A stretch of 64,000 nt of DNA from Candidatus Saccharimonadales bacterium (GCA_038211855.1 JBBQVE010000001.1:95309-159308), one strand, 5' to 3'. Counted from the first letter of the stretch, positions 12,162 through 60,344 are shown. Numbers and translations: made by a program. Notes: a model not told the origin generated them from the sequence alone.

Positions 12162-12330
12162 TGCTGCTCCTCACTTTAGTGATTTTTGCCCGTCCTTCGA
12201 CCTTTGGACTGGGCTGATTTATTACCGAGAATTAAAAAACTGCCTCGCTAAAACGGAGACAGCTTGCTAATGCTCAAAAACAAAGAGATTTACATCTGTT
12301 TGCCTCGGTAGCCAATTAAGCGTGTATTAA
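12162..12330 (-). promoter_or_regulatory. rplJ 5' leader with an internal hairpin plus U6 (12234..12262); candidate L10-leader-type autoregulatory attenuator
   Basis: Minus-strand CUGUCUC-CGUUUUAGC-GAGGCAG followed by UUUUUU lies about 70-100 nt upstream of the rplJ ATG, with more stem-loops upstream. Confidence 0.4.
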
Positions 12331-12401
12331 ACGCAGCTACTGTCTTCGGTAACAGAGAGAACTATAGCACAGCGGACGCTTTCTGTAAAGAGTTGCACCT
12401 C

Positions 12402-14132: not shown

Positions 14133-15296
14133 TCAAGCAGTGACACCACGAGCTGCCAATCGTCCACTACGCCCTTGGTACTTGCCTTCTTCGTGAACCG
14201 CATTGGTTGTATGCCCCCAGAAAGTGGGGTCAAACGGCGTGTAAATACGATGTCCGCCCTTCAAGATGCCATCGCTGTGAATGCCCGAGCGATGCGCCAG
14301 AATATCGCTTCCAACGACGGGACTTTGCCGGTCGATTTCGAAGTTGGCGAAATGCATTACAGTTTTTGCAATATTAACGGACAGACCAGGATTAAACTCC
14401 CAGTTAATACGTTTTGGGTAATCCTCGGCAAAACGGAATAAACTGGCGACAATCGGAAATATATTTGCATTTCCTGCTCGCTCGCCTAGACCACAAATAG
14501 TAGTTTCTACCTGGACGCGTATATCATGGGACACGGGAAAATAAGCAGCCGCTTCTATAAGCGCCAAGCTATTTGCTACTGCCATGCCCAAATCATTATG
14601 ATTGTGAGATGAGACTGTCACATCTGGATTTGTAGCCATAACCCACCTTAAAACTTTGCCATAAAATGTTCGCATAAATGCAGGCGAACGCTGTCCGACT
14701 GTGTCAGGAACATTAATGACATCAGCTCCGGCATCTACGGCTGTTTTTACGACTCGTTCAAGATAGTTCATATCTGTAGTTGAGGCGGCTTCTGCTGAAA
14801 ACTCAACACTGGCACCAATGTGATCAGCGCTTATCTCTTTGGCGTACCGCACTGCGTTACGTGCCATATCGTGCACATCATCAGGAGTTTTACTGGGAAA
14901 CTTAGCACTCATATGATGCGGATCGGTGGAGACAAAAGTATGGATGCGCGGTCGAGCGGCGCCCATAACTGCTGCCCATGTTTTTTCTATATCAGAGGGC
15001 AAGGTACGAGATAAGCCGGCAATGACGGGTGGTCTTGCTACTGCCTCGCTCTTACCACTTTCATTCCAACTACAGACGGTGAAGTCAGTGGTACCAACTC
15101 CCATCGCAGCAACTTCTACTTCTTCGGCATCGCTCGGCGTCGCTGGAAAACCAGCTTCAATAACTCCTATACCTAGGTGCGCAATCGCGTTGGCAATTAC
15201 CGGTTTACTGTTGTCAGGAAACTGGTGATCTGCTGGGAGCGATTGCGCGCCGTCCCTTAATGTCGTGTCAAAAAAATCTATATGTATTTCGCCCAT
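14133..15296 (-). CDS. LeuA/CimA/NifV-family (HMGL-like DRE-TIM) acyl-CoA:2-oxoacid condensing enzyme homolog, catalytic domain only
   Basis: FDTTLRDGAQS, HNHNDLGMAVANSLALIEAA. At 387 aa it lacks the C-terminal LeuA regulatory domain. Confidence 0.75.
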   Translation of the reverse strand: MGEIHIDFFDTTLRDGAQSLPADHQFPDNSKPVIANAIAHLGIGVIEAGFPATPSDAEEVEVAAMGVGTTDFTVCSWNESGKSEAVARPPVIAGLSRTLPSDIEKTWAAVMGAARPRIHTFVSTDPHHMSAKFPSKTPDDVHDMARNAVRYAKEISADHIGASVEFSAEAASTTDMNYLERVVKTAVDAGADVINVPDTVGQRSPAFMRTFYGKVLRWVMATNPDVTVSSHNHNDLGMAVANSLALIEAAAYFPVSHDIRVQVETTICGLGERAGNANIFPIVASLFRFAEDYPKRINWEFNPGLSVNIAKTVMHFANFEIDRQSPVVGSDILAHRSGIHSDGILKGGHRIYTPFDPTFWGHTTNAVHEEGKYQGRSGRLAARGVTA

Positions 15297-20518: not shown

Positions 20519-21250
20519 TCAGATCTCCCTCGGTGTTCTACGTTTGTCTTTGTACGCCCGCGGTAACATCTGTTCAGGGCGCCATTCTGCGATCAATCCC
20601 ACGAGGTTATCGGCGTTACCGGGCTGGTATTTGCCAGAGAGCTTGGCGTATTCCGTGTCGACCGGCCCGGTGTGATAAAAAACTATTTGGGCGATACGTT
20701 CGCCAACTGGTAGCACGACGCTTTCATGCTGGTTCATATTGTATATTTCCATCGTCCAGCGATTGATGTAACCCGGGTCGCCCCAGCCAGCGTCCAAACA
20801 GACGGCGACACCGTTCCGGCCCCAAGTGCTACGCGCTTGCATGGTGCTGGTGCCGGGGGCTTTGATGCCGATGAACTCGTGGGTGTGCGCTAAGATGCGT
20901 TCGCCGGGACGCAGGACAATGATTGGATGATCGGCTGGAATGCCACGGAAAAGCGTGCGGCCATTTGCCTGCGCCCAAAGTGAATGCGTTTCGGCATGAT
21001 GCGGGCCATCAAAATAACGATTCACATCAGATTCATCAAAGGGGTTGTAAAAACCGCCGCTCGGGCCGCTTTCGGTCCGGTAAAACCAGTGCCCGAGAGT
21101 TACATCAACACTGCTGCCGGCAATATGCTCAGGGATGTAAGGATGGAAGACGATGTGGCCGGTTTTAATCGCTTCCATAATTTCGATATTAGAATAGACA
21201 CCCCCGACGAGTGGAGTCGCGATAACCCCTGTTCTGCTACCCTCATTCAT
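20519..21250 (-). CDS. dcd: dCTP deaminase/dUTPase-superfamily protein (Dcd-like)
   Basis: SSVDVTLG, GWGDPGYINRWTMEIYN, VGERIAQIVF. ATG 21250 lies 7 nt after TACAAT; the track ORF uses TTG 21283. Confidence 0.8.
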   Translation of the reverse strand: MNEGSRTGVIATPLVGGVYSNIEIMEAIKTGHIVFHPYIPEHIAGSSVDVTLGHWFYRTESGPSGGFYNPFDESDVNRYFDGPHHAETHSLWAQANGRTLFRGIPADHPIIVLRPGERILAHTHEFIGIKAPGTSTMQARSTWGRNGVAVCLDAGWGDPGYINRWTMEIYNMNQHESVVLPVGERIAQIVFYHTGPVDTEYAKLSGKYQPGNADNLVGLIAEWRPEQMLPRAYKDKRRTPREI

Positions 21251-21318: not shown

Positions 21319-21828
21319 CTATATATGGTGTTTGAAGATCCATTCACATACGCTAAGAGATTCGCTAAAAAGGTCACCTGCGGCATAAAGTTCTCTAATG
21401 GCCATAAGTGTAAGCCACTCAATGGCATCGGCACCATCTGGATTGTCGGTAATTTTAGTTGTTTTCGCACGAACTAGATAACTGAGATCAATATGCTTAT
21501 GAGTTTCGTTATAATTGTGCTGAAAAAAATAAAACGGAATCGGCAGGCGAGTAATGCCGCCACCGGGGTTTGGTTGTTCGGGCTGAGCGATTATGTCGTA
21601 CTCTGAGGGTTTGAGACCGGTTTCTTCTTCAAGTTCATGATGCAGTGCCTCAAGCGGATTTTCGTCCAACTCAATGTGGCCACCTGGTTGTAGCCATTTG
21701 CCAATTTTACGGTGTTTTAACAAAAGTAATTTCGGTTCTGTAGGGTGCAAAATAAACGCGCTGGTCGTGAAGTCATTCAACTCATGAATATGGGGCATAG
21801 AGAAACTATACACCGCGTTGATGCACAA
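21319..21828 (-). CDS. NUDIX hydrolase
   Basis: Nudix box GGHIELDENPLEALHHELEEETGL. Confidence 0.85.
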   Translation of the reverse strand: MCINAVYSFSMPHIHELNDFTTSAFILHPTEPKLLLLKHRKIGKWLQPGGHIELDENPLEALHHELEEETGLKPSEYDIIAQPEQPNPGGGITRLPIPFYFFQHNYNETHKHIDLSYLVRAKTTKITDNPDGADAIEWLTLMAIRELYAAGDLFSESLSVCEWIFKHHI

Positions 21829-22357
21829 GATAAGTCATAACGGCGACTCTCGTTAGAAAACGACGCTGCCGCCCATCACCGACAAATCTGGCGTCATCTC
21901 TTTCGATCAGCCTGATGATGGATTGTGGTGATCTCCAGACTTTCATACAGCCTACAGGTAAGTTTTCTGGTGTAGGAGAGGGCATATTTCGATAGAGCAC
22001 CGGAATGTGGAGTCGTGGTGCGGCGCCTTTTGTAGAAATGGCTCGAATGAGTATAGTGCCAATCGCCTGACCTTCGCCTGCTGTATGAAAACGGCGCGCA
22101 ACTGCCTTGGATACTTCAGTAGCACCAAATGGCGGATCAATAATTGCTTCAGGTAATTTCGCTATTTTAGGAATATTGCCAAAAGCATCGAAATCCAAGG
22201 TCAGCAGGTTACCTTCAGCATTTGGTATGATTCCCATCGCAACTGGTTGGTCCGAGGTGTTTTCAAGAATGGATTGTAAGGAGTCCGGAGAAAATCTTAA
22301 GACTTCCACGTCTGACGGTATGTTCGAGTGAGACATATGATGTTCTCCTTCTCCCAC
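21806..22357 (-). CDS. Hypothetical protein (183 aa)
   Basis: ORF only, with no recognised motif. Confidence 0.5.
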   Translation of the reverse strand: MGEGEHHMSHSNIPSDVEVLRFSPDSLQSILENTSDQPVAMGIIPNAEGNLLTLDFDAFGNIPKIAKLPEAIIDPPFGATEVSKAVARRFHTAGEGQAIGTILIRAISTKGAAPRLHIPVLYRNMPSPTPENLPVGCMKVWRSPQSIIRLIERDDARFVGDGRQRRFLTRVAVMTYLVHQRGV

Positions 22358-22366
22358 CCAGAGAGT

Positions 22367-23356
22367 TTAAAGCTCGGAGTTTAGAACTTTGATGCTTGGG
22401 CCCATGCTGGTTGTCACGAAGGCAGATTTGACGTAAGTAGCTTTGACGCTTGAAGGTTTTGCGGCTTTGAGGGCGGCAATGACGGCCGCGGCGTTTTCAC
22501 CGAGCTTGGCAGGACCGAAGCTGACTTTGCCCATGGCAAGATGAATGATACCAGTTGGGTCGACGCGGTATTCAACTCGACCAGCTTTGGCTTCTAGGAC
22601 GGCTTTCGCGACGTCTTTGGTGACTGTACCGCTCTTTGGGTTCGGCATCAGGCCTTTTGGACCGAGCACGCGGGCGTATTTGCCGAGTTTCGCCATGACT
22701 TGCGGGGTAGAAATAAGTACGTCGAAGTCGATTTTGCCCTTATCAAGCTGGGCGAGGAAGTCTTCGGCACCAGCGATTTCGGCACCGGCTTTTTTGGCAA
22801 GTGCAACGTCATCAACTTCGGCAAAAACGGCAACACGAACAGCTTTACCGGTACCGGCTGGCAATACCAGCTGACCACGGATGTTCTGATCGGCTTGACG
22901 AGGATCAACGTTTAAGCGAACGTGCAGCTCGACGCTTGAGTCAAACTTGGTGGTAGCGGTCTTGGTGGCAAGTTCGAGGGCTTCGGCAAGGCTGTATTCT
23001 TTGTCTCTTTCAATAAGTTTGAAGGCTGCGCGGTATTTTTTGCCGGCGCGCTCAGAGTGAGGGCGAGCTGTTGGCGCTAGTTTGGCAACATGCTCAGTGT
23101 CATCATCTTCTGAGGCGTGAGCTTTTCGATCTTCCTTCGCCTCTTTGGCTTCGGCTACTTTGACACCTTTGGCGCTGCGCTTACCAGCCTTGGCTGTTTT
23201 TGGCTCTTCAGCCTCAATAACTGCGACCTCTTGGGCAACAACTTCTTCAGATGCAGGCGTTTCTGCCAACACCTCAACAATAGGCTTTTCGGCCTTTTTG
23301 ATAGCTGGCTTCTTGGCTGCTGGAGCTTTTGCAGCTGGTTTCTTGGCTTCCGCCAT
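22367..23356 (-). CDS. rplA: 50S ribosomal protein L1 with a roughly 100-aa Lys/Ala/Glu-rich N-terminal extension
   Basis: The C-terminal roughly 230 aa are L1-like (GKAVRVAVFA..., VLGPKGLMPNPKSGTV). ATG 23356 is preceded by the SD AAGGA. Confidence 0.9.
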   Translation of the reverse strand: MAEAKKPAAKAPAAKKPAIKKAEKPIVEVLAETPASEEVVAQEVAVIEAEEPKTAKAGKRSAKGVKVAEAKEAKEDRKAHASEDDDTEHVAKLAPTARPHSERAGKKYRAAFKLIERDKEYSLAEALELATKTATTKFDSSVELHVRLNVDPRQADQNIRGQLVLPAGTGKAVRVAVFAEVDDVALAKKAGAEIAGAEDFLAQLDKGKIDFDVLISTPQVMAKLGKYARVLGPKGLMPNPKSGTVTKDVAKAVLEAKAGRVEYRVDPTGIIHLAMGKVSFGPAKLGENAAAVIAALKAAKPSSVKATYVKSAFVTTSMGPSIKVLNSEL

Positions 23357-23449: not shown

Positions 23450-24220
23450 TCACTCATTCTCGTAAGCACCAAAGAAACGGTCTCCAGCATCGCCAAGCCC
23501 TGGAACAATATAGGCATTGTCATTAACGCCCCAGTGTAGTTGTGTCGTTGTTATATCAAAGTTATCAGGAAATGCTTTAAGTAAACGAGCGGTACCTTGG
23601 GGGGCTGGAATCATGGCCAACATATGCACGTATCGGGCGCCACGCTCGAAGGCTGTTTCTATAGTTACCTCGGCAGATCCACCGGTTGCGAGCATCGGAT
23701 CGCAGACAAACACTTCTTTGCCCTTTAGGTTCTTCGGCATTTTGTCTGCGATCATAAGTGGGTCATGTGTCAATTCATCACGCTTCATGTCAAGGAAGTA
23801 CTGGTGGGCATTGGGAACATGGGCATCGATACCCTCACGGAAAGCAAGACCGGCACGAGGAATGATGACGAATGCCATGTCATCTTGGATGAGGGTACTA
23901 GCCGTTAGATAGCGCTGATTCGGTGTAGTAACTGATCGGGGATGACGACTAGAGATGGAATTATTAAGTGCATCAGCAACTATGATGCCACCTAGATACC
24001 CCGCGGTACGTTTAAAGGTCTCCATGTCGGAGCTCGTATCGCATAATCTTAACACGGCACCTGCAACGAGAGGACTGTCTAGTATATGGAGTCTTCTTGC
24101 TTCAAAGTTTGTTTGGCAAACGTCGAGTGCGGCTTCAGTCGATTGAAATTTGATGAGGTTGCTACTTATGAAAGGTTTTGTTCCATTGGGGGTTTCGGAT
24201 GTGATCGAGATACTGCTCAT
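23450..24220 (-). CDS. upp: Uracil phosphoribosyltransferase-like protein with an N-terminal extension
   Basis: PRPP-binding VFVCDPMLATGGSA and the C-terminal YIVPGLGDAGDRFFG. Confidence 0.85.
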   Translation of the reverse strand: MSSISITSETPNGTKPFISSNLIKFQSTEAALDVCQTNFEARRLHILDSPLVAGAVLRLCDTSSDMETFKRTAGYLGGIIVADALNNSISSRHPRSVTTPNQRYLTASTLIQDDMAFVIIPRAGLAFREGIDAHVPNAHQYFLDMKRDELTHDPLMIADKMPKNLKGKEVFVCDPMLATGGSAEVTIETAFERGARYVHMLAMIPAPQGTARLLKAFPDNFDITTTQLHWGVNDNAYIVPGLGDAGDRFFGAYENE

Positions 24221-24251
24221 GATGCCTCCTATCAGTTTGACCGACTATAGC

Positions 24252-24285
24252 AAAAAGAACCTATCAAATGGTAGGTTCTTTTTTA
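24252..24285. terminator. Bidirectional terminator hairpin
   Basis: AAAAAGAACCTA-TCAAATGG-TAGGTTCTTTTTT. Confidence 0.75.
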
Positions 24286-24298
24286 CAATGATGTATCG

Positions 24299-24502
24299 TT
24301 AACGACGCAATGCGCGCGAGCGGGCCTGCATCGCGTTGATAAGTGCGACTTGGCCGACTTCATGCTCATACTGGCTATCGCTATAGATCTTTCTAGTTAC
24401 ATCGACTTCTATATGTAAAGGCGGTAACGAGTCGAAAGGCTCTTCGGCTGGCAATCTTGCCTCCCGAGGAGCTGTGTAGACGAGTTCGACGTTTCCTTGC
24501 AT
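24299..24502 (-). CDS. Hypothetical small protein (67 aa)
   Basis: ORF between rplK and the terminator. Confidence 0.4.
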   Translation of the reverse strand: MQGNVELVYTAPREARLPAEEPFDSLPPLHIEVDVTRKIYSDSQYEHEVGQVALINAMQARSRALRR

Positions 24503-24511
24503 GATGAAAAT

Positions 24512-24943
24512 CTAGGCTTCGACTTCGACGCCCATTGAACGGGCAGTGCCAGCGACCATTTTCTTTACAGATTCGATGTTATCGGCATTCATGTCGATCA
24601 TCTTGGCTTCGGCAATTTCGGTTAGTTGGCTTTGGCTAAGCTTTTTAGCGATTTTTTCGCTGTTCGGCTTGCCGCTGCCTTTTTTGATACCGAGTTTTTC
24701 GCGGATAAGGTCGTCAGCTGGTGTGCCAATGACACGAAAACTCATGGTGCGGTCTTCATAAATTGCAATATGTACCGTGAGCGCTTTGCCCATGCGGTCT
24801 TTGGTGGCTTCGTTGAATGGATTAATGAAATCCATCATGTTGACGCCGTACTGACCGAGAGTGGAACCGACTGGTGGCGCCGCGCTGGCCTGGCCACCTT
24901 TTAATTTCATCTTTAAATTTGCTTTGACAGGCTTTCCAGCCAT
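24512..24943 (-). CDS. rplK: 50S ribosomal protein L11
   Basis: KLKGGQASAAPPVGSTLGQYGVNMMDFINPFN. Confidence 0.97.
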   Translation of the reverse strand: MAGKPVKANLKMKLKGGQASAAPPVGSTLGQYGVNMMDFINPFNEATKDRMGKALTVHIAIYEDRTMSFRVIGTPADDLIREKLGIKKGSGKPNSEKIAKKLSQSQLTEIAEAKMIDMNADNIESVKKMVAGTARSMGVEVEA

Positions 24944-25033
24944 AGTACTTCTCCTTGTGTGCAGCAGTTTGAAGCTCTGCTAGACAATTGTGCGTAACTT
25001 GAAGCTCATTATACTACAGCTTACCTCTGTTGT

Positions 25034-26017
25034 CTAGCGATCTAAAAGGACACGATTGTCTCTTAATTTTTTTAGTGCACTTTTCAAAGAAGCGCTAACT
25101 GCTTGTTGAGAGATACCCAGCTCTTCTGCAATTTCTCTAGAGCTATGCGTCTCTCCGGAAAGACCAAACTTATGAAGTACGATATGTCGCTGCCGCTCCG
25201 TCAGAATACTAAGAAAATGGATCAGTTTTTCCTTGTGTGCGACTCGCATGAAAGCTTCTTCAGGCCCGGTACCCGTAGAGGCAATTAAGTCACCATGGCT
25301 GGCGTTCCCATCAAAGCCAACTTTTTTGTCGAGTGAAGCCGGCGTACTGGCCCGATAAATACACAAAGTGTCGTGTGTCATCTTCGTTTCATCGCCGTTC
25401 ACATTTCTCACTTGTACATTTGCAGCGCTGTACCGGTCTGTGGGAACTTTTACGAGACTTCCTTTATTAATAGCTAAACCGATCCGTTGACGAATCCATC
25501 CAGTTGCATAAGATGAAAATTTTGTATCACGACGCCAATCAAATAAATCGATGGCGTGAACGAGGCCCGTCTTACCTTCTTGCATGTAATCTTCTTTTGT
25601 GAGGCCATTTTTCGGTGGATAGCGGTTTGCAATGCTGGCTACCAACCCTGTATTAGATCTTATAAAGCGATCCTTGGCACTATCTCCGGCTTCTATACTT
25701 AAAAGCTCACTCGCTGTCGGTCTATGATCTGGTCGGCTTAGTGCTGACGCACGTGCCAGACGGCCGACTTCGATTTGTTGCGCTAATCATTTTTCTGTCG
25801 CAGCATTTAAAAGCGGCAAATTATCACTACTTATCCGCTGCCGGCGAGCTTCTCGCTGCTCAAGCAAACTCAATTGCGGTAGACTCAGCTCGAGGGGTGC
25901 TGCTGTTTGTACATCCTGAAGTGCCACAAAACCTGCGCTCTCAAAAACATTTAGAGGATCAAGGTTTACTCCTGACTGAAATTCTTGTGTTTCTCGAAAG
26001 GCTTCAGTGTATTGCAT
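25034..26017 (-). CDS. Sigma-70-family RNA polymerase sigma factor interrupted by one in-frame TGA (25787..25789)
   Basis: Track ORFs 25787..26017 and 25034..25645 share a frame, and the 47 codons between them are open. The joined protein has regions 1.2 (PLLNAATEK*LAQQIEVG), 2 (NTGLVASIANRY...EGKTGLVHAIDLFD...YATGWIRQRI) and 4 (LTERQRHIV...REIAEELGISQQAVS). SD GGAGA precedes ATG 26017. Confidence 0.7.
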
Positions 26018-26048
26018 GTTCTCCGATGGCGTGTGCTAGACAATTAAA

Positions 26049-26597
26049 TTAAACTCGCTTGACTTGAAGGCCGTCGAGCTCAACCGGTGTCTCGCGGCCG
26101 AACATGTTGACGAGGACTTTGAGTTTGCCTTTAGCGGCATCGATTTCATTGATAGAGCCATCGAAGCCCTTGAACGGACCGTCGATGATATTGACCACTT
26201 CGCCGATGGCAAAGTCGATTTTGTGCTTTGGATCTTCACGACCCATGCGCTTCATGATCTTTTCCATCTCTTGGTCCTCAACAGGAGTTGGATCGGTTCC
26301 GGAGCCGACGAAACCAGTGACACTTGGGGTATTACGAACAATGTACCAGGCATCTTCACTCATCTTCATCTGGACCATGACATAGCCTTGGAAGATACGC
26401 TTTTCGACAACTTTACGTTTGCCGTTCTTGATTTCGATCATTTTCTCTTTTGGTACGAGTACCATAAAGATTTTGTCGCCCATGTCGAGTGAGTCAGCGC
26501 GTTGACGAATTGATTCAGCAACTTTTTCTTCATAGCCACTATATGTATGGATAGCGTACCAGTGTTTTTGTGAGTCGTAGCGTTTTGAAATATTCAT
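26049..26597 (-). CDS. nusG: Transcription termination/antitermination factor NusG
   Basis: WYAIHTYSGYEEKV at the N-terminus (NGN domain) and a KOW domain at the C-terminus. Confidence 0.95.
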   Translation of the reverse strand: MNISKRYDSQKHWYAIHTYSGYEEKVAESIRQRADSLDMGDKIFMVLVPKEKMIEIKNGKRKVVEKRIFQGYVMVQMKMSEDAWYIVRNTPSVTGFVGSGTDPTPVEDQEMEKIMKRMGREDPKHKIDFAIGEVVNIIDGPFKGFDGSINEIDAAKGKLKVLVNMFGRETPVELDGLQVKRV

Positions 26598-27058: not shown

Positions 27059-28654
27059 ATGAAGGTCGCTGATGTCAATATACCACAAAGTAGGTTGTTT
27101 GGGAAGAAGTCGTCATATACCCCTTATGGTATAGTTGATTCTATGATCTTTTCTGCGCTGCCATGGGTACTTTTTGCTGCGGCATGTCTGTTTGAGGCCT
27201 TCTTGATGTCGGTTCGCCTCTCACATGAAGCTCGGCAATGGGCTGGTGGGCTACTATTGCTACTTCTTACTATCTCACTCGGTGCACTCGTCATACAGGA
27301 GCCGCTGCTGTTCGGTGTTCCCTTCTTGATTATTGGCTGCTACCGGATTCTGAATTGTATGCGCTTTATTTATGGACGCATGCACGAAGAATACTTATAC
27401 CGAGTGGTACCCCGTTCTAGTCTTTATTTGGTCAGTACTCAGCTGACTGTTGGTGGTCTCGGACTTTTGTTGGCGCGTAATCACCTACCTTTAAATGGTG
27501 TGCTCCTGAGTGTAGCAGTCGTTCAGCTTATAGCTGCTGCCACGTTGCTCCTTTCACTGCGTGTCAATCTTAAAAAAAGCCAGCTAACAGCAGCCGAAGC
27601 AGTACCAGACAAGAAGTTGCCGAGTGTCAGCATCCTGATTCCGGCTCGTAACGAAACCGCTGATCTTGAAGCCTGCTTAAAGACTTTAACTGCTTCGACC
27701 TATCAAAAGCTGGAGATTTTGGTGTTAGATGATTGCTCGCAAGACAGAACGCCCGAACTTATTAAACAGTTTGCCCATGACGGCGTGCGCTTTATCCGCG
27801 GTAGTGAACCTGGTGAAGTCTGGCTGCCAAAAAACGCCGCCTACAATAAGTTGGCCCATGAAGCATCAGGTGAGTTCCTTCTGTTTTGTGGAGTTGACGT
27901 CCGCTTTATGCCGAATGATATAAAAACATTGGTCAGTTACGCCTTGGAACAACGACTCACTATGGTGAGCGTGTTGCCGGCTCGATCTGCACAGGGTACC
28001 GGAAACAGTCTTGCGCAGCAGGTACGCTATCTTTGGGAACTGGCTTTGCCGCGCTTTGTCAGCAATCGTCCACCGGTGTTAAGTACCTTGTGGCTGATCC
28101 AAGCGACCGCGCTCAAAAAATATGGTGGTATGGCTGCAGTGCGACGTAACGTTGTGCCGGAAGGTTTCTTTGCGCGCGAACTCGATAAGAAGAATATGTA
28201 CCGCTTTTTGCGCTCCGGCGAGGCGCTCGGCATAGTTAGCACCAAGTTACCGAGCGAACAGCGTTACACAGCTCTACGCGTGCGCTACCCGCAACTACAT
28301 CGTCGTCCAGAGGTAGTGATGGTGGTGGCGTTATTCGAATTGGTCACGATTATCGGTCCGTTTTTTCTGGCCGGTTACGCGTTGTACTACAGTCACTGGA
28401 CTGTAGTTGTGATTGCCCTCGCTGCGTCTGTCACGCATCTGCTGGTGCTGGTAGAGATGTCGCGAGTCATGGGTCACCGCTCCGCATTGGCTGCGCTCAA
28501 TGGTATTTTTGCCGTTTTCTTGGATATATGGCTCGTTAATCGCTCAATGTATTTGTATGAGTTTGGCGCTGTGCACTGGAAAGAACGAAATGTTTGTTTG
28601 CCGGTGATGCACGCCATGCCGAGCCAACCGCAGTTGCCGCGTGCCAAACACTAA
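27059..28654 (+). CDS. Membrane-embedded family-2 glycosyltransferase
   Basis: N- and C-terminal TM bundles flank a GT-A domain (SILIPARNE...LVLDDCSQDRT). Confidence 0.8.
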   Translation: MKVADVNIPQSRLFGKKSSYTPYGIVDSMIFSALPWVLFAAACLFEAFLMSVRLSHEARQWAGGLLLLLLTISLGALVIQEPLLFGVPFLIIGCYRILNCMRFIYGRMHEEYLYRVVPRSSLYLVSTQLTVGGLGLLLARNHLPLNGVLLSVAVVQLIAAATLLLSLRVNLKKSQLTAAEAVPDKKLPSVSILIPARNETADLEACLKTLTASTYQKLEILVLDDCSQDRTPELIKQFAHDGVRFIRGSEPGEVWLPKNAAYNKLAHEASGEFLLFCGVDVRFMPNDIKTLVSYALEQRLTMVSVLPARSAQGTGNSLAQQVRYLWELALPRFVSNRPPVLSTLWLIQATALKKYGGMAAVRRNVVPEGFFARELDKKNMYRFLRSGEALGIVSTKLPSEQRYTALRVRYPQLHRRPEVVMVVALFELVTIIGPFFLAGYALYYSHWTVVVIALAASVTHLLVLVEMSRVMGHRSALAALNGIFAVFLDIWLVNRSMYLYEFGAVHWKERNVCLPVMHAMPSQPQLPRAKH

Positions 28655-41124: not shown

Positions 41125-42348
41125 TTGAAAGTATTAATGCTAGGTTGGGAGTTGCCTCCGCACTACGTGGGCGGTATGGGGATTGTTTGCGACCAGCTGA
41201 CACGCACTATGGCGAAGCAAGGTGCAGATATCGAGTTTGTATTACCTTTTTATGCCGATTATTCGCATATTACTCATATGAAGGTCACCTCTGCCCTCGA
41301 ACAAGACGCTCAAACTTTGATGATCAGTGGCGGTACGTACGACAGCATGCGCTACGAAGTGACGATGCTCAATGGCAAAAAATACACCAGGACACTTTAC
41401 GATCAGGTGATGGCTTTTGCCAGTAACGTGCGGAATTTGGCGTTTTACGGTGAGTACGATGTGATTCATGCTCATGACTGGCTGACCTTACGAGCTGGAA
41501 TCGAGGCCAAAGCAGTCACGGGCCTGCCCCTGTTCGTCCACATTCACGCCACCGAGTATGACCGTGCTGGCGCGAAGCACGGCAATCCATTAATTCGTGA
41601 GATTGAGTATATTGGTCTGCATATGGCCGATCACATCTTTGCCGTCAGTGAGCGCACCAAACAGACACTGATTGAGCAATACGACATCCCTGCTGACAAG
41701 ATCACTGTTGCTTACAACGTCATGGAGATACATCCTGATTACCTCAAAGAAGACGAAGAAACCTATGTGTATTTGCAAAAAATGCGCTCGCTTGGCTACA
41801 AAGTCGTTGTGAACGCCGGTCGGATGACGGTTCAGAAAGGTATTTATAATCTGGTGATGGCCGCTCGTAAGGTGCTTGATGAGATGCCGAAGACGATTTT
41901 CCTGTTTGTTGGCGGAGGCGAGCAGATTCCGGAACTGCTGGAACTCGCTGCATCGCTTGGTATGTCGGGTAATGTCATCTTTACTGGTCGAGTCGAAGGC
42001 ATTGGTCGACAGTGGCGCGACTGCTTCCGGGCAGCTGATTTGTATGTGATGCCATCTGTTTCTGAGCCGCTTGGTATGGTGCCTTTGGAGGCGATTGCTT
42101 ATGGTGCTCCAACCCTTATTTCAAAACAGTCAGGCATCGCAGAATTCCTGGTAAATACACTGAAAGTTGACCACTGGGACGTGCAGGAAATGGCCAATAA
42201 AATTTGTGCCGTCTTGCAAAATCCTGATTTGCATGATCAGTTACTGTTGAACGCTCAAGCCGAGCACAGGCAGATGAGCTGGAAACCGACGTCTGAGCGC
42301 ATTATGCAGACGTACGACCACGTTAAGCGGCAGGTGGCCATATCGTGA
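41125..42348 (+). CDS. Family-4 (GT-B) glycosyltransferase, glycogen/alpha-glucan synthase-like
   Basis: TTG start, MLGWELPPHYVGGMG, and the EX7E motif EPLGMVPLEAIAYG. Confidence 0.8.
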   Translation: MKVLMLGWELPPHYVGGMGIVCDQLTRTMAKQGADIEFVLPFYADYSHITHMKVTSALEQDAQTLMISGGTYDSMRYEVTMLNGKKYTRTLYDQVMAFASNVRNLAFYGEYDVIHAHDWLTLRAGIEAKAVTGLPLFVHIHATEYDRAGAKHGNPLIREIEYIGLHMADHIFAVSERTKQTLIEQYDIPADKITVAYNVMEIHPDYLKEDEETYVYLQKMRSLGYKVVVNAGRMTVQKGIYNLVMAARKVLDEMPKTIFLFVGGGEQIPELLELAASLGMSGNVIFTGRVEGIGRQWRDCFRAADLYVMPSVSEPLGMVPLEAIAYGAPTLISKQSGIAEFLVNTLKVDHWDVQEMANKICAVLQNPDLHDQLLLNAQAEHRQMSWKPTSERIMQTYDHVKRQVAIS

Positions 42349-43559
42349 GTGAAAAACGCGCCATTGTTTTATACCTGCACGTACACCAACCGTTCCGCGT
42401 GCGCCATTACACTATTTTTGACGCTGGCAAGCACCATGATTATTACGATGCTCCAGAGGGCGACCGCACCAGTAACGCCGACATCGTTCGTAAAGTTGCC
42501 GAGAAATCATATTTGCCAACCAATGAACGTTTGCTAAAGATGTTGCATGATAATCCGGACTTCAAACTGTCGATGTCTATTACCGGTACTGTTATAGAGC
42601 AGCTAGAGCGCTATGCACCCCATGTTTTAGATACTTTTAAAGAAGTTGTTGCCACGGGGCGCGTCGAAATCGTTGCGGAAACTTATCATCATTCCCTAGC
42701 CTTCTTTTATTCCCGCGAAGAGTTCGAGGCGCAGGTCGCTTTGCACCGCGAGAAGATTCAGCAGGTTTTTGGCCTGACGCCGACTGCCTTCCGCAATACC
42801 GAGCTCAGCTATAACAATGATTTGGCTTATTGGGCGGACAAGGCTGGATATAAGGCTATTCTGTGCGAAGGTTGGGATCCAGTGCTCGGCTGGCGCAGCC
42901 CAAATTTCGTCTATCGTCCGGCCTACACTGACAACATCCGGCTACTGACCAAAAACTACAAACTGAGCGACGACATCGCCTTCCGTTTTGGCAATAAGAA
43001 CTGGGAATCATATCCGTTAACAACAGATAAGTTCATGGATTGGACGAGTGCTGCTTGGCGAGAGCCGCTGATTAACTTGTTTATGGATTATGAGACCTTT
43101 GGCGAGCACCAGTGGGCCGACACTGGAATTTTTGACTTTTTGGAGCACCTGCCAAAGGCATGGTTGGCAAAAGAGGGCCATACATTCATGACAGTTACGG
43201 AGGCAGCCGAAGCTTTTGAAGCTGCCGACTTCCTAGATGTGCCAAACACTATCACCTGGGCCGACACTGAGCGTGATTTAACGGCGTGGCTGGGCAATAT
43301 GATGCAACAAGGTTCGATTGGTGCGCTCTATAGTCTGCAGCCGCTAATTATGGGCTCTCAAGACATGGTGCTGATTGAAGATTGGCGAAAATTACAGACG
43401 AGCGATCATTTTTATTACATGTGTACCAAGTGGTGGAATGATGGTGATGTTCACGCTTATTTTAGTCCTTATGAATCACCATATGAAGCTTATATGAACT
43501 TTATGAACGCCTGGCATGACCTGAAATACCGGTTGGCCGAGAAAGGAATCGAGGTTTAG
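42345..43559 (+). CDS. Glycoside hydrolase family 57 protein
   Basis: LHVHQPFR at the N-terminus and MDYETFGEHQW. Its GTG start overlaps the upstream TGA stop. Confidence 0.8.
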   Translation: MSEKRAIVLYLHVHQPFRVRHYTIFDAGKHHDYYDAPEGDRTSNADIVRKVAEKSYLPTNERLLKMLHDNPDFKLSMSITGTVIEQLERYAPHVLDTFKEVVATGRVEIVAETYHHSLAFFYSREEFEAQVALHREKIQQVFGLTPTAFRNTELSYNNDLAYWADKAGYKAILCEGWDPVLGWRSPNFVYRPAYTDNIRLLTKNYKLSDDIAFRFGNKNWESYPLTTDKFMDWTSAAWREPLINLFMDYETFGEHQWADTGIFDFLEHLPKAWLAKEGHTFMTVTEAAEAFEAADFLDVPNTITWADTERDLTAWLGNMMQQGSIGALYSLQPLIMGSQDMVLIEDWRKLQTSDHFYYMCTKWWNDGDVHAYFSPYESPYEAYMNFMNAWHDLKYRLAEKGIEV

Positions 43560-58400: not shown

Positions 58401-58868
58401 TTACTTTGTCGTCGCTTCTTTTTTAGTACGTGCAGGCTTTGGGGTGACGGCAAATGTACCACCAGCCTTCTGGATCATTTCAACCGATCGAGCGCTGGCA
58501 GCTTGCAATTTGACTTGCAGTTTTTTGGTAATATCGCCACGAACGACCACGCGAACCATCTGGTAAGGTGAGTCTATCAAACCGACTTCGTAGAGGGTAA
58601 AGTTGTCTACCATTCCGGTCATGGCGTTGATTTTATCGGTCGTGATAGCAACAGGCTTGTCCCAGAATGGGGTAAAGCCACGTAATTTTGGTACGCGTTT
58701 CATCAACGGCCTTGAACCACCTTCAAAGCCAGGCTTGCGGCGTGAACCGGTTCGAGAGCCTTGACCCTTAGTACCACGACCAGCAGTCTTGCCTTGGCCG
58801 GCAGAAATACCGCGACCAACGCGATTAATGCGCTTGTGGGGCGTGAGTTTAAGTTCGTTATATTTCAT
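58401..58868 (-). CDS. rplO: 50S ribosomal protein L15
   Basis: GRGISAGQGKTAGRGTKGQ. Confidence 0.96.
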   Translation of the reverse strand: MKYNELKLTPHKRINRVGRGISAGQGKTAGRGTKGQGSRTGSRRKPGFEGGSRPLMKRVPKLRGFTPFWDKPVAITTDKINAMTGMVDNFTLYEVGLIDSPYQMVRVVVRGDITKKLQVKLQAASARSVEMIQKAGGTFAVTPKPARTKKEATTK

Positions 58869-59443
58869 TATTTGGCCTCCGCTTTTTTGACTTCTGGCGC
58901 TTTGGCGACAGAAGTTTCAGTTTTCGCTGGTTTTTCGGCTTTGGCTGATTTGACGTTCTTAGAAGTAATCCATTCACTCTTTGGTTCCATGGCGCGGATC
59001 ACATCAAGTGTCGCGTAAGCGATATTGATTTTATTGCTTGAACCGAGTGACTTGGAAAGGATGTCATTTACACCAGCGACTTCAAGAATCGTACGGACGA
59101 CACCGCCAGCGATAAGACCGGTACCGGCTGAGGCTGGTTTTACAAAGATACGGGCACCACCGACCTTCGCTTCGGCCTCATGTGGCAAGGTTCCATTGAC
59201 GACAGGAACGCTAATCATGTGCTTTTTGGCGACTTCAGTTGCTTTACTGACGGCTGCGGTTACATCAGCACCTTTGGCAATACCAACGCCGACTTTGTGC
59301 TTGCGGTCACCAACGACGACGAGTGCGCGGAAACGAAAGCGACGGCCACCTTTTACGACACGCGCGACACGGTCGATATTAACAACTCGCTCGTCAAATG
59401 GACTTGGTTCTTGTGGGCCTTGATTTCGTGGTTCGCGAGCCAT
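58868..59443 (-). CDS. rpsE: 30S ribosomal protein S5 with a Lys/Ala-rich C-terminal tail
   Basis: VVNIDRVARVVKGGRRFRFRALVVVGD. ATG 59443 lies just after the rplR stop; the track ORF extends to 59530. Confidence 0.95.
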   Translation of the reverse strand: MAREPRNQGPQEPSPFDERVVNIDRVARVVKGGRRFRFRALVVVGDRKHKVGVGIAKGADVTAAVSKATEVAKKHMISVPVVNGTLPHEAEAKVGGARIFVKPASAGTGLIAGGVVRTILEVAGVNDILSKSLGSSNKINIAYATLDVIRAMEPKSEWITSKNVKSAKAEKPAKTETSVAKAPEVKKAEAK

Positions 59444-59444
59444 A

Positions 59445-59798
59445 CTAGAACTCCAATCCTTCTGCGCGTGCCGCATCGGCAAACGCTTTAACGCGTCCGT
59501 GATAGAGACGACTGCCTCGGTCAAGGACAACTTTCTTCACTTTAGCTGCTTTAGCTTTTTTGGCGATTTCAGTGCCGAGTACGACGGCCTTTTCGGACAT
59601 CGTGCCGGTTGCTTTGTTACCAACGGTCGTGGCGCTGACAATAGTCTTGCCATCTTCATCATTAATAACTTGGGTCGTAATGTGCGTGTTCGTGATGCGC
59701 AAGCAAAGGCGTGGGCGCTCAGCTGTCCCATGGACAGTGGCACGGACGCGGTGGGCGCGCTGGGTACGATTTGATAGTTTACGGACTCTTTCGTTCAT
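59445..59798 (-). CDS. rplR: 50S ribosomal protein L18
   Basis: RHRVRATVHGTAERPRLCLRITN...GRVKAFADAARAEGLEF. Confidence 0.96.
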   Translation of the reverse strand: MNERVRKLSNRTQRAHRVRATVHGTAERPRLCLRITNTHITTQVINDEDGKTIVSATTVGNKATGTMSEKAVVLGTEIAKKAKAAKVKKVVLDRGSRLYHGRVKAFADAARAEGLEF

Positions 59799-59804
59799 AT
59801 GGGC

Positions 59805-60344
59805 CTACTTGTCCTTTCCGCTCTTGCCGCTCTTACGGACAATGCGCTCGGTTACATACTTAATACCCTTACCTTTATAAGGTTCAGGCTTTTTGAAGGA
59901 ACGGATTTCGGCAGCGGCCTGGCCAACTTGCTGTTTGCTGATGCCGCTGATGGTAACAAGGTTTTGCTCGACGGTTGCAGTGATACCTTCAGGAAGTTGA
60001 TAAATAACATCGTGAGAGAAGCCAAGCTGCATCTTCAAGGTCGTGCCTTGTACTGCTGCGCGGAAACCGACACCGTTAATTTCCAGCTGCTTTTTGAAGC
60101 CTTCTGTGACGCCTGTCACCATATTCTGGATCAGCGTTCGCATCAGACCGTGCTTACTCTTATGTTCGCGTTCATCGCTCGCGCGGGTAACGGTGAGGGT
60201 GTCACCATCTACTTTGGCGATGATACCAGGCATTGTGAATTGCTTCAGTGTGCCCTTCGAACCGGTGACGGTTACAAAATCATCGTCGACAGTAATTGTC
60301 ACACCGCTGGGAATTTTGATCGGCAGTTTTCCTATACGACTCAT
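59805..60344 (-). CDS. rplF: 50S ribosomal protein L6
   Basis: MSRIGKLPIKIPSGVTITV. Confidence 0.96.
   Translation of the reverse strand: MSRIGKLPIKIPSGVTITVDDDFVTVTGSKGTLKQFTMPGIIAKVDGDTLTVTRASDEREHKSKHGLMRTLIQNMVTGVTEGFKKQLEINGVGFRAAVQGTTLKMQLGFSHDVIYQLPEGITATVEQNLVTISGISKQQVGQAAAEIRSFKKPEPYKGKGIKYVTERIVRKSGKSGKDK

Follow-up and report, generated by a model that had tools for sequence, protein, structure and literature searches.

A gene of the sigma-70 family, lying between nusG and rplK in the 64-kb stretch of DNA that was analysed as a whole (64,000 nucleotides, called the window below), is interrupted by a single in-frame TGA. The reading that we favour, with a probability of roughly 0.6, is that of a nonsense allele of very recent date, or a young pseudogene, in a dispensable accessory sigma gene. 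The proposed course of events would begin with the insertion of a lineage-specific, dispensable sigma-70 family gene between nusG and the rplK promoter, and a later single nonsense mutation would have changed codon 77, midway along the helix of region 1.2, from a sense codon to TGA. Translation from ATG 26017 would then end after 76 residues, no canonical start would let the ribosome resume ahead of region 2.1, and functional sigma would be absent or made in trace amounts by background misreading of UGA. Such an allele would be either a null allele segregating in the population or a young pseudogene.

The interruption is an ordinary premature stop. The most informative point, which was absent from the preliminary description of this DNA, is that the sigma gene is no core gene and forms a lineage-specific cassette in a hypervariable slot between nusG and rplK; for a gene that is accessory and lineage-specific in this way, loss of function would be unremarkable.

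Reading frame and gene structure

Translation of the minus strand from 26017 to 25034 gives one reading frame of 328 codons belonging to the sigma-70 family, closed by a TAG (25036..25034) and holding exactly one internal stop, the TGA of codon 77; no further stop and no frameshift was found by translation in these 328 codons, and since the rest of the frame is intact the lesion would be very recent. The read-through product has 327 residues and consists of an N-terminal tail followed by regions 1.2, 2, 3 and 4. The preliminary description had placed the two open frames in one shared frame with 47 open codons between them, and translation bears this out: the codons that separate the TGA from TTG 25645 number 47 and are all free of stops. 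The coordinates of the gene, its pieces and its surroundings are given in Table 1.

Table 1. Positions of the interrupted sigma gene, its pieces and the neighbouring features in the window.
Feature	Position	Strand	Remarks
nusG, upstream flanking core gene	26049..26597	-	86-93% identical to Saccharimonadales relatives
Direct repeat AATTGTCTAGCA, upstream copy, 12 nt	26034..26045	-	just after the nusG stop
Shine-Dalgarno-like GGAGA	26020..26024	-	read directly from the sequence; 2 nt before ATG 26017 (short spacing)
Interrupted sigma-70 family gene	25034..26017	-	328 codons including internal TGA and terminal TAG
Upstream piece, 76 codons from ATG 26017	25790..26017	-	N-terminal tail and first half of region 1.2 (LPLL...)
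In-frame TGA, codon 77	25787..25789	-	variable position of the region 1.2 helix
Downstream piece, 250 sense codons and TAG	25034..25786	-	remainder of region 1.2, regions 2-4
rplK promoter TAGACA-17-TATAAT	25008..25036	-	11/12 matches; -35 hexamer starts with the sigma TAG stop
Direct repeat AATTGTCTAGCA, downstream copy, 12 nt	24978..24989	-	between rplK promoter and rplK start
rplK (L11), downstream flanking core gene	24512..24943	-	

An in-frame TAG stands 7 codons upstream of ATG 26017, and because of it this ATG is the sole canonical start (ATG, GTG or TTG) for the upstream piece. The good Shine-Dalgarno sequence that had been claimed for it is present, but its spacing of merely 2 nt is short. 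No gene call for the upstream piece was found in any public record. Past the TGA the frame next offers a canonical start at TTG 25645 (residue 125) and then at ATG 25585; the NCBI gene call (P0001) begins at the later of the two, ATG 25585, and gives a protein of 183 aa. TTG 25645 had been said to lie inside region 2.1, and this is confirmed, Pfam region 2 extending from residue 119 to 179. A protein begun at TTG 25645 or ATG 25585 would lack helix 2.1, or a larger part of the core-binding domain, and for this reason no functional sigma is expected from either start.

These starts bear directly on the proposal that a truncated sigma covering regions 2.2-4 is the real product of the locus, with the 76-codon ORF upstream as a separate small protein or leader, a proposal that we hold to be very improbable. 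The NCBI annotation of the 183-aa P0001 agrees with it and the ECF-type sigmas, which work with regions 2 and 4 alone, offer a precedent for such minimal forms, but both starts lie inside Pfam region 2, with the loss of helix 2.1 and, for ATG 25585, also of part of the core-binding fold. In addition all homologs, those of the same slot included, are continuous from region 1.2 onward, and the 47 codons from TGA to TTG are not only open but homologous to sigma factors, which is unexpected for a spacer. A deliberately split sigma, one of the options raised in the preliminary description, finds no support either, as there is no DNA between the two pieces and no start before region 2.1 for the downstream one.

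Termination-reinitiation was considered at an ATG that overlaps the TGA (A-ATG-A) and was ruled out; this ATG is out of the sigma frame and opens an ORF of 22 codons only (25790..25722, minus strand), which ends in TAG.

The frame-specific codon-usage score is +0.157 for the 76 upstream codons and +0.179 for the 250 downstream codons. Both values are higher than those of all 260 off-frame control chunks and lower than those of typical core genes of the window (mean 0.33), and on this measure the two pieces behave as one gene which is somewhat atypical for the genome. A search for other split genes in the window turned up just one more case of two long pieces in the same frame next to a real gene (58868..59851); it was rejected, being the S5 gene preceded by sequence that is not protein-like.

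Domains and homologs of the sigma protein

The read-through protein matches Pfam Sigma70_r2 with 43.1 bits (cutoff 24, residues 119-179), Sigma70_r4 with 39 bits (cutoff 24.1) and Sigma70_r3 with 26.8 bits (cutoff 25.3), and the NCBIfam superfamily model TIGR02937 with 84.3 bits (cutoff 42.9). Regions 2 and 4 thus place it in the sigma-70 family. For region 1.2 the Pfam model Sigma70_r1_2 gives a weak match at residues 68-86, spanning the stop (E=0.1, 13 bits, cutoff 22), and the region is recognised through the alignments with homologs and structures. Among the NCBIfam models the superfamily threshold alone is passed, and the scores stay far below every RpoD, SigA, SigB or RpoS cutoff: the best equivalog or subfamily match is TIGR02997 with 127 bits against a cutoff of 384, and RpoD_Cterm reaches 107 bits against 354.

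The protein around the stop reads SDNLPLLNAATEK, then the UGA, then LAQQIEVGRLA. A tblastn search matched 38 homologous loci; the alignments open at residues 66-69, in one case at residue 21, and cross codon 77. A phmmer comparison with the Streptomyces HrdB/SigA structures gives a continuous alignment over residues 25-320, in which LPLLNAATEKxLAQQIEVG is paired with VPLLNAEQEVELAKRIEAG (VPLLNAEQEV-E-LAKRIEAG). The placement of the UGA at the seventh residue after the LL of region 1.2, made at first from the sequence pattern, is confirmed by these alignments, as both the homologs and HrdB/SigA align across it.

The residues aligned to the UGA in the homologs are E (31), R (2), S (2), Q, A and N, encoded by GAG, GAA, CGC, CAA, GCA, TCC, TCG and AAT, and R is the residue in the best-matching homologs. 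A stop at this position occurs in none of the 38, of which none is closer than about 39% identity. Most of the homologs were obtained via the LAQQIEVG peptide pattern and are a biased sample, and despite this bias the alignments show a position which is variable and, to judge from them, always sense. A single base change leads from the Arg codons CGA or AGA, or from the Ser codon TCA, to TGA, and both R and S occur at the site in homologs.

Close orthologs were looked for among 5.8 billion protein clusters, in which, once the gene's own truncated NCBI call P0001 is set aside, identity does not exceed 37%, and in a metagenome scan, in which no locus exceeds 39% identity to the sigma protein. 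By contrast, numerous proteins with at least 90% identity to the neighbouring NusG and L11 are present in the same clusters. A 325-aa protein (P0036) is a match of the 'primary sigma' kind; it was considered as a marker of the housekeeping sigma of Saccharibacteria and dropped, its genomic context being uninformative. With no close relatives in protein clusters or metagenomes, the gene is not the ortholog of the relatives' housekeeping sigma; it lacks both the equivalog scores and the close orthologs in relatives that mark a housekeeping (group 1) RpoD/SigA. These comparisons point to an accessory sigma gene and not a housekeeping one, and it was probably acquired horizontally or evolves very fast. 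No second sigma gene is present within the 64-kb window, and the housekeeping sigma would presumably lie elsewhere in the genome.

UGA as a stop codon in the lineage

The NusG of the window is 86-93% identical to the NusG of 80 species representatives, nearly all of them labelled Saccharimonadales or Saccharibacteria, and these relatives allowed the genetic code to be examined. Fourteen genes of the window were queried against up to 80 relatives; 11 of them had orthologs, and 551 orthologs had a readable stop. Across about 138,000 aligned residues of these 11 conserved genes no in-frame TGA was met, and 69 of the 551 orthologs (about 12%) are themselves terminated by TGA, including 17 of 41 for dcd. 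The surrounding genes, 11 of which were tested against orthologs, show no broken frames. In the window itself TGA had been described as a normal terminator, and this holds: the DCD, HMGL-like and GT4 domain genes end in TGA (20519..20521, 14133..14135 and 42346..42348). The TGA-ended genes of the window have complete domains, and after their TGA the next stop follows within 0-18 codons, with the GT4 gene as the sole exception. Since UGA is a normal stop here, translation of the sigma gene is expected to end after 76 residues.

The GT4 frame runs on beyond its TGA for 62 stop-free codons, as far as the gene that follows (42349..42537, plus strand). Their translation is rich in Cys and Thr and has no domain match, and the open extension is probably due to chance. 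In a further gene, for a 531-aa GT2 membrane protein (27059..28654), in-frame TAGs are seen in the tblastn alignments of three relatives (L071, L044 and L066), which may be pseudogenes or effects of the alignment ends.

The tRNA-Trp of the window has the standard CCA anticodon, and neither a tRNA with a UCA anticodon nor a suppressor tRNA or tRNA-Sec occurs within the 64 kb. The rest of the genome would presumably lack a suppressor tRNA as well and contain prfB (RF2). The 101 nt on the 3′ side of the stop fold at -24 kcal/mol (z = -0.54), and 51 of 200 shuffled sequences fold as well; no SECIS-like hairpin is seen in this fold, and a search of Rfam gave no match to the region at E <= 1. A conserved stop and a 3′ structure or context, by which recoding is recognised, are thus both absent, and the same is true of the marks of a SECIS element and of the alternative codes 4 and 25. 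Saccharibacteria are treated as code 11, unlike Gracilibacteria and Absconditabacteria (PMC10746230).

A sense reading of the UGA, whether by code 4 or 25, as selenocysteine, or in a cassette taken from a recoded donor (a relative in the Gracilibacteria or Absconditabacteria, or a recoded phage), is close to refuted by these data. It has in its favour that sister lineages of the same superphylum read UGA as Gly and that the gene is clearly mobile or foreign to its slot, but the conserved genes examined in 80 relatives are free of in-frame TGA and use TGA as a terminator, only one TGA occurs in 328 codons, and G, W or C is found at the aligned position in no homolog. The missing SECIS-like hairpin and UCA-anticodon tRNA (the latter within the window) weigh in the same direction, as does a GC content equal to that of the flanks. 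The option of recoding in the preliminary description falls on the same grounds: a normal UGA stop in the clade, no 3′ structure, no suppressor or Sec tRNA in the window and no stop in any homolog.

Background read-through of UGA by tRNA-Trp is a known property of bacteria, and a functional leaky stop could make use of it, the UGA being misread at a low rate, for example by tRNA-Trp(CCA), and acting as an attenuator of an alternative sigma factor. We regard this as improbable. In its favour, the 250 downstream codons are intact and keep their in-frame codon bias, and the site tolerates six different residues in homologs, but the intactness is explained equally by a recent mutation. Against the leaky stop are further the lack of a stimulatory 3′ structure and of an Rfam match, the fact that no homolog has a stop at the site, the slot cassettes of relatives L051 and L039 included, and the base T that follows the TGA; the resulting UGA-U is in E. 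coli a comparatively efficient termination context.

The nusG-rplK slot

The sigma gene occupies the spacer between nusG and rplK (24944..26048 of the window). Both flanking genes were found in 74 relatives, in which the spacer measures from 19 to 4385 bp and is shorter than 140 bp in 13; in the closest relative, L002 (NusG 93%, L11 88%), it is 138 bp. A sigma-like gene could be detected in the spacer of 2 of the 74 and none in at least 66; the other 6 largest spacers contain unrelated ORFs by their ORF listing, which brings those without a sigma gene at this place to at least 72 of 74. Sigma genes in the slot are hence known from three genomes only, namely the window, L051 and L039. The 18 largest spacers, when examined, held mostly unrelated ORFs, and that of L026 has an ORF of at least 1238 codons. 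Judged from this comparison of sequences, Saccharimonadales have in the nusG-rplK spacer a hypervariable slot which takes up unrelated accessory genes, very divergent sigma factors among them. The absence of the sigma gene from most relatives, together with the lack of close proteins, makes it look dispensable in the lineage.

The gene has a GC content of 0.44-0.50, the same as its flanks, and a foreign composition is on this account ruled out.

The borders of the insert can be followed at the rplK promoter. In relatives free of an insert (L002, L016, L028 and L031) the TAG of nusG supplies the first bases of the -35 hexamer of this promoter, a role that falls to the sigma stop in the window (Table 1). 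The promoter block of the relatives is GTC-TAG-ACAACAGRGGT ... TAnnAT ... GTTACGCA, and the block after the sigma stop of the window is CGC-TAG-ACAACAGAGGT...TGTAGTATAAT...GTTACGCAC. The conserved GTTACGCA that follows the rplK promoter has its counterpart in the window at 24990..25001. The two copies of the repeat AATTGTCTAGCA are perfect, bracket the sigma gene together with the rplK promoter and are the only occurrences in 64 kb; two or more matches were obtained in 4 of 100 shuffles. The repeat may be a scar of insertion or recombination.

Farther downstream, a 67-aa ORF without Pfam match (24299..24502) and a uracil phosphoribosyltransferase (UPRTase) gene (23450..24220), on the minus strand, lie between rplK and rplA. 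The L1 protein (22367..23356, minus strand) has 329 aa, with about 130 N-terminal residues ahead of the Pfam L1 domain. Orthologs of the UPRTase gene and of a 176-aa ORF (21806..22336) are both absent from the related loci. The L10 leader (RF00557, 62 bits) was found at 12225..12367 on the minus strand, about 10 kb from rplA, so that the rplKA cluster is not next to rplJL in this genome.

Origin of the interruption

The locus displays the features of a nonsense pseudogene: a premature stop relative to full-length homologs, no restart before the essential domains, and a gene which looks dispensable in its lineage. We infer that the stop is present in cells and abolishes function. A single lesion in an otherwise perfect frame would also be expected, and equally so, from a sequencing or consensus error or from a tolerated leaky stop. 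Of the four options listed in the preliminary description, the nonsense mutation or pseudogene and the sequencing error therefore stay live, and recoding and a split sigma have dropped out for want of support.

An independent sequence reaches the stop from one side. The Logan contig L001 (run SRR19962015) corresponds to window 25787..24222 on the minus strand and is 100% identical over 1566 bp. It starts exactly at the A which is the third base of the in-frame TGA, two bases short of the codon, and its other end falls 2 nt short of the UPRTase start codon ATG. A literature search on the run accession gave no match. The chance expectation of such a coincidence at the start is about 3 in 1566. 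In a de Bruijn graph with k=31 the first base of a shared contig is the one that follows a variable base, and the start of L001 fits heterogeneity at G 25788, or a haplotype diverging upstream of it. The ends of L001 may be breakpoints of strain variation or breaks at low coverage. Exact look-up of P0001, the 76-aa piece, a 203-aa call, SecE and NusG gave no match, so that no contig spanning the TGA was found, and the exact look-up of L11 returned L001 only; a contig with a sense-codon variant at 25789..25787 was not found in the same look-ups.

The contig bears mainly on the possibility that the TGA is an artefact of assembly or consensus calling, or else a minority variant. The real or dominant allele would then have a sense codon and encode an intact accessory sigma of 327 residues, the TGA being due either to faulty base calling or polishing or to the assembler's choice of a rare strain variant. 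We judge this unlikely, with an appreciable chance left to it. The single lesion in a perfect remaining frame, the origin of the window from a metagenome-assembled genome, and the start of L001 at the A of the TGA, which fits a branch at G 25788 in the k=31 graph, all agree with it, but that end of L001 may be a mere low-coverage break and no contig with a sense codon was found. Moreover de Bruijn assemblers output only k-mers seen in the reads, so that at least a few reads probably contained the TGA, and the 11 neighbouring genes without broken frames indicate a low local error rate.

We give very little credence to the idea that the UGA is maintained in the accessory sigma gene, either as a leaky stop keeping the sigma very low or as one state of an on/off polymorphism at base 25788 in the population, at which the break of L001 hints.

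Significance of the data

It is routine for a dispensable gene in a metagenome-assembled genome to carry one premature stop. For annotation, the locus is better flagged as a pseudogene or possible error than as a 183-aa sigma factor. The hypervariable nusG-rplK slot with its very divergent sigmas may be of interest for work on genome plasticity in reduced epibionts, a matter separate from the finding of the stop. If the stop were maintained and leaky, it would be a small case of translational control of an alternative sigma in a CPR bacterium; under that reading, or with the on/off polymorphism, a mobile sigma cassette beside the nusG-rplK core operon would be switched at translation termination.

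Comparison with known systems

Principal-like (group 1/2) sigma-70 proteins such as Streptomyces HrdB/SigA (PDB 8k60_F, 7vpd_F) and Mycobacterium SigA/SigB have the same order of regions 1.2, 2, 3 and 4, and the HrdB/SigA type shares with the sigma of the window the region 1.2 motif PLLNA...LAxxIExG. In comparison with HrdB/SigA the sigma of the window is about 30% identical, has a short N-terminus without a match to a region 1.1 domain, and is a lone cassette between nusG and rplK with a premature stop. The sigmas of L051 (353 aa) and L039 (379 aa) occupy the same slot and, like that of the window, have region 1.2 after a tail of 50-80 residues, but no stop interrupts them; the codon aligned to the UGA is GCA (Ala) in one and AAT (Asn) in the other. 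The three are mutually 27-28% identical and are no closer to each other than to sigmas of other phyla.

Ordinary nonsense pseudogenes and null alleles likewise have a single premature stop, continuous homologs and a dispensable gene; the gene of the window differs from ordinary pseudogenes in being without further decay in its 328 codons. Code 25 (UGA = Gly) of Gracilibacteria and Absconditabacteria belongs to the same superphylum (Patescibacteria/CPR) and also shows an in-frame UGA in conserved protein, but in its genomes most genes contain numerous in-frame TGAs and TGA does not serve as a terminator, and the clade of the window is the opposite. The split sigK of Bacillus subtilis (skin element) is also a sigma gene in two pieces; its halves are rejoined by excision of the intervening element, whereas those of the window are separated by only the three bases TGA.
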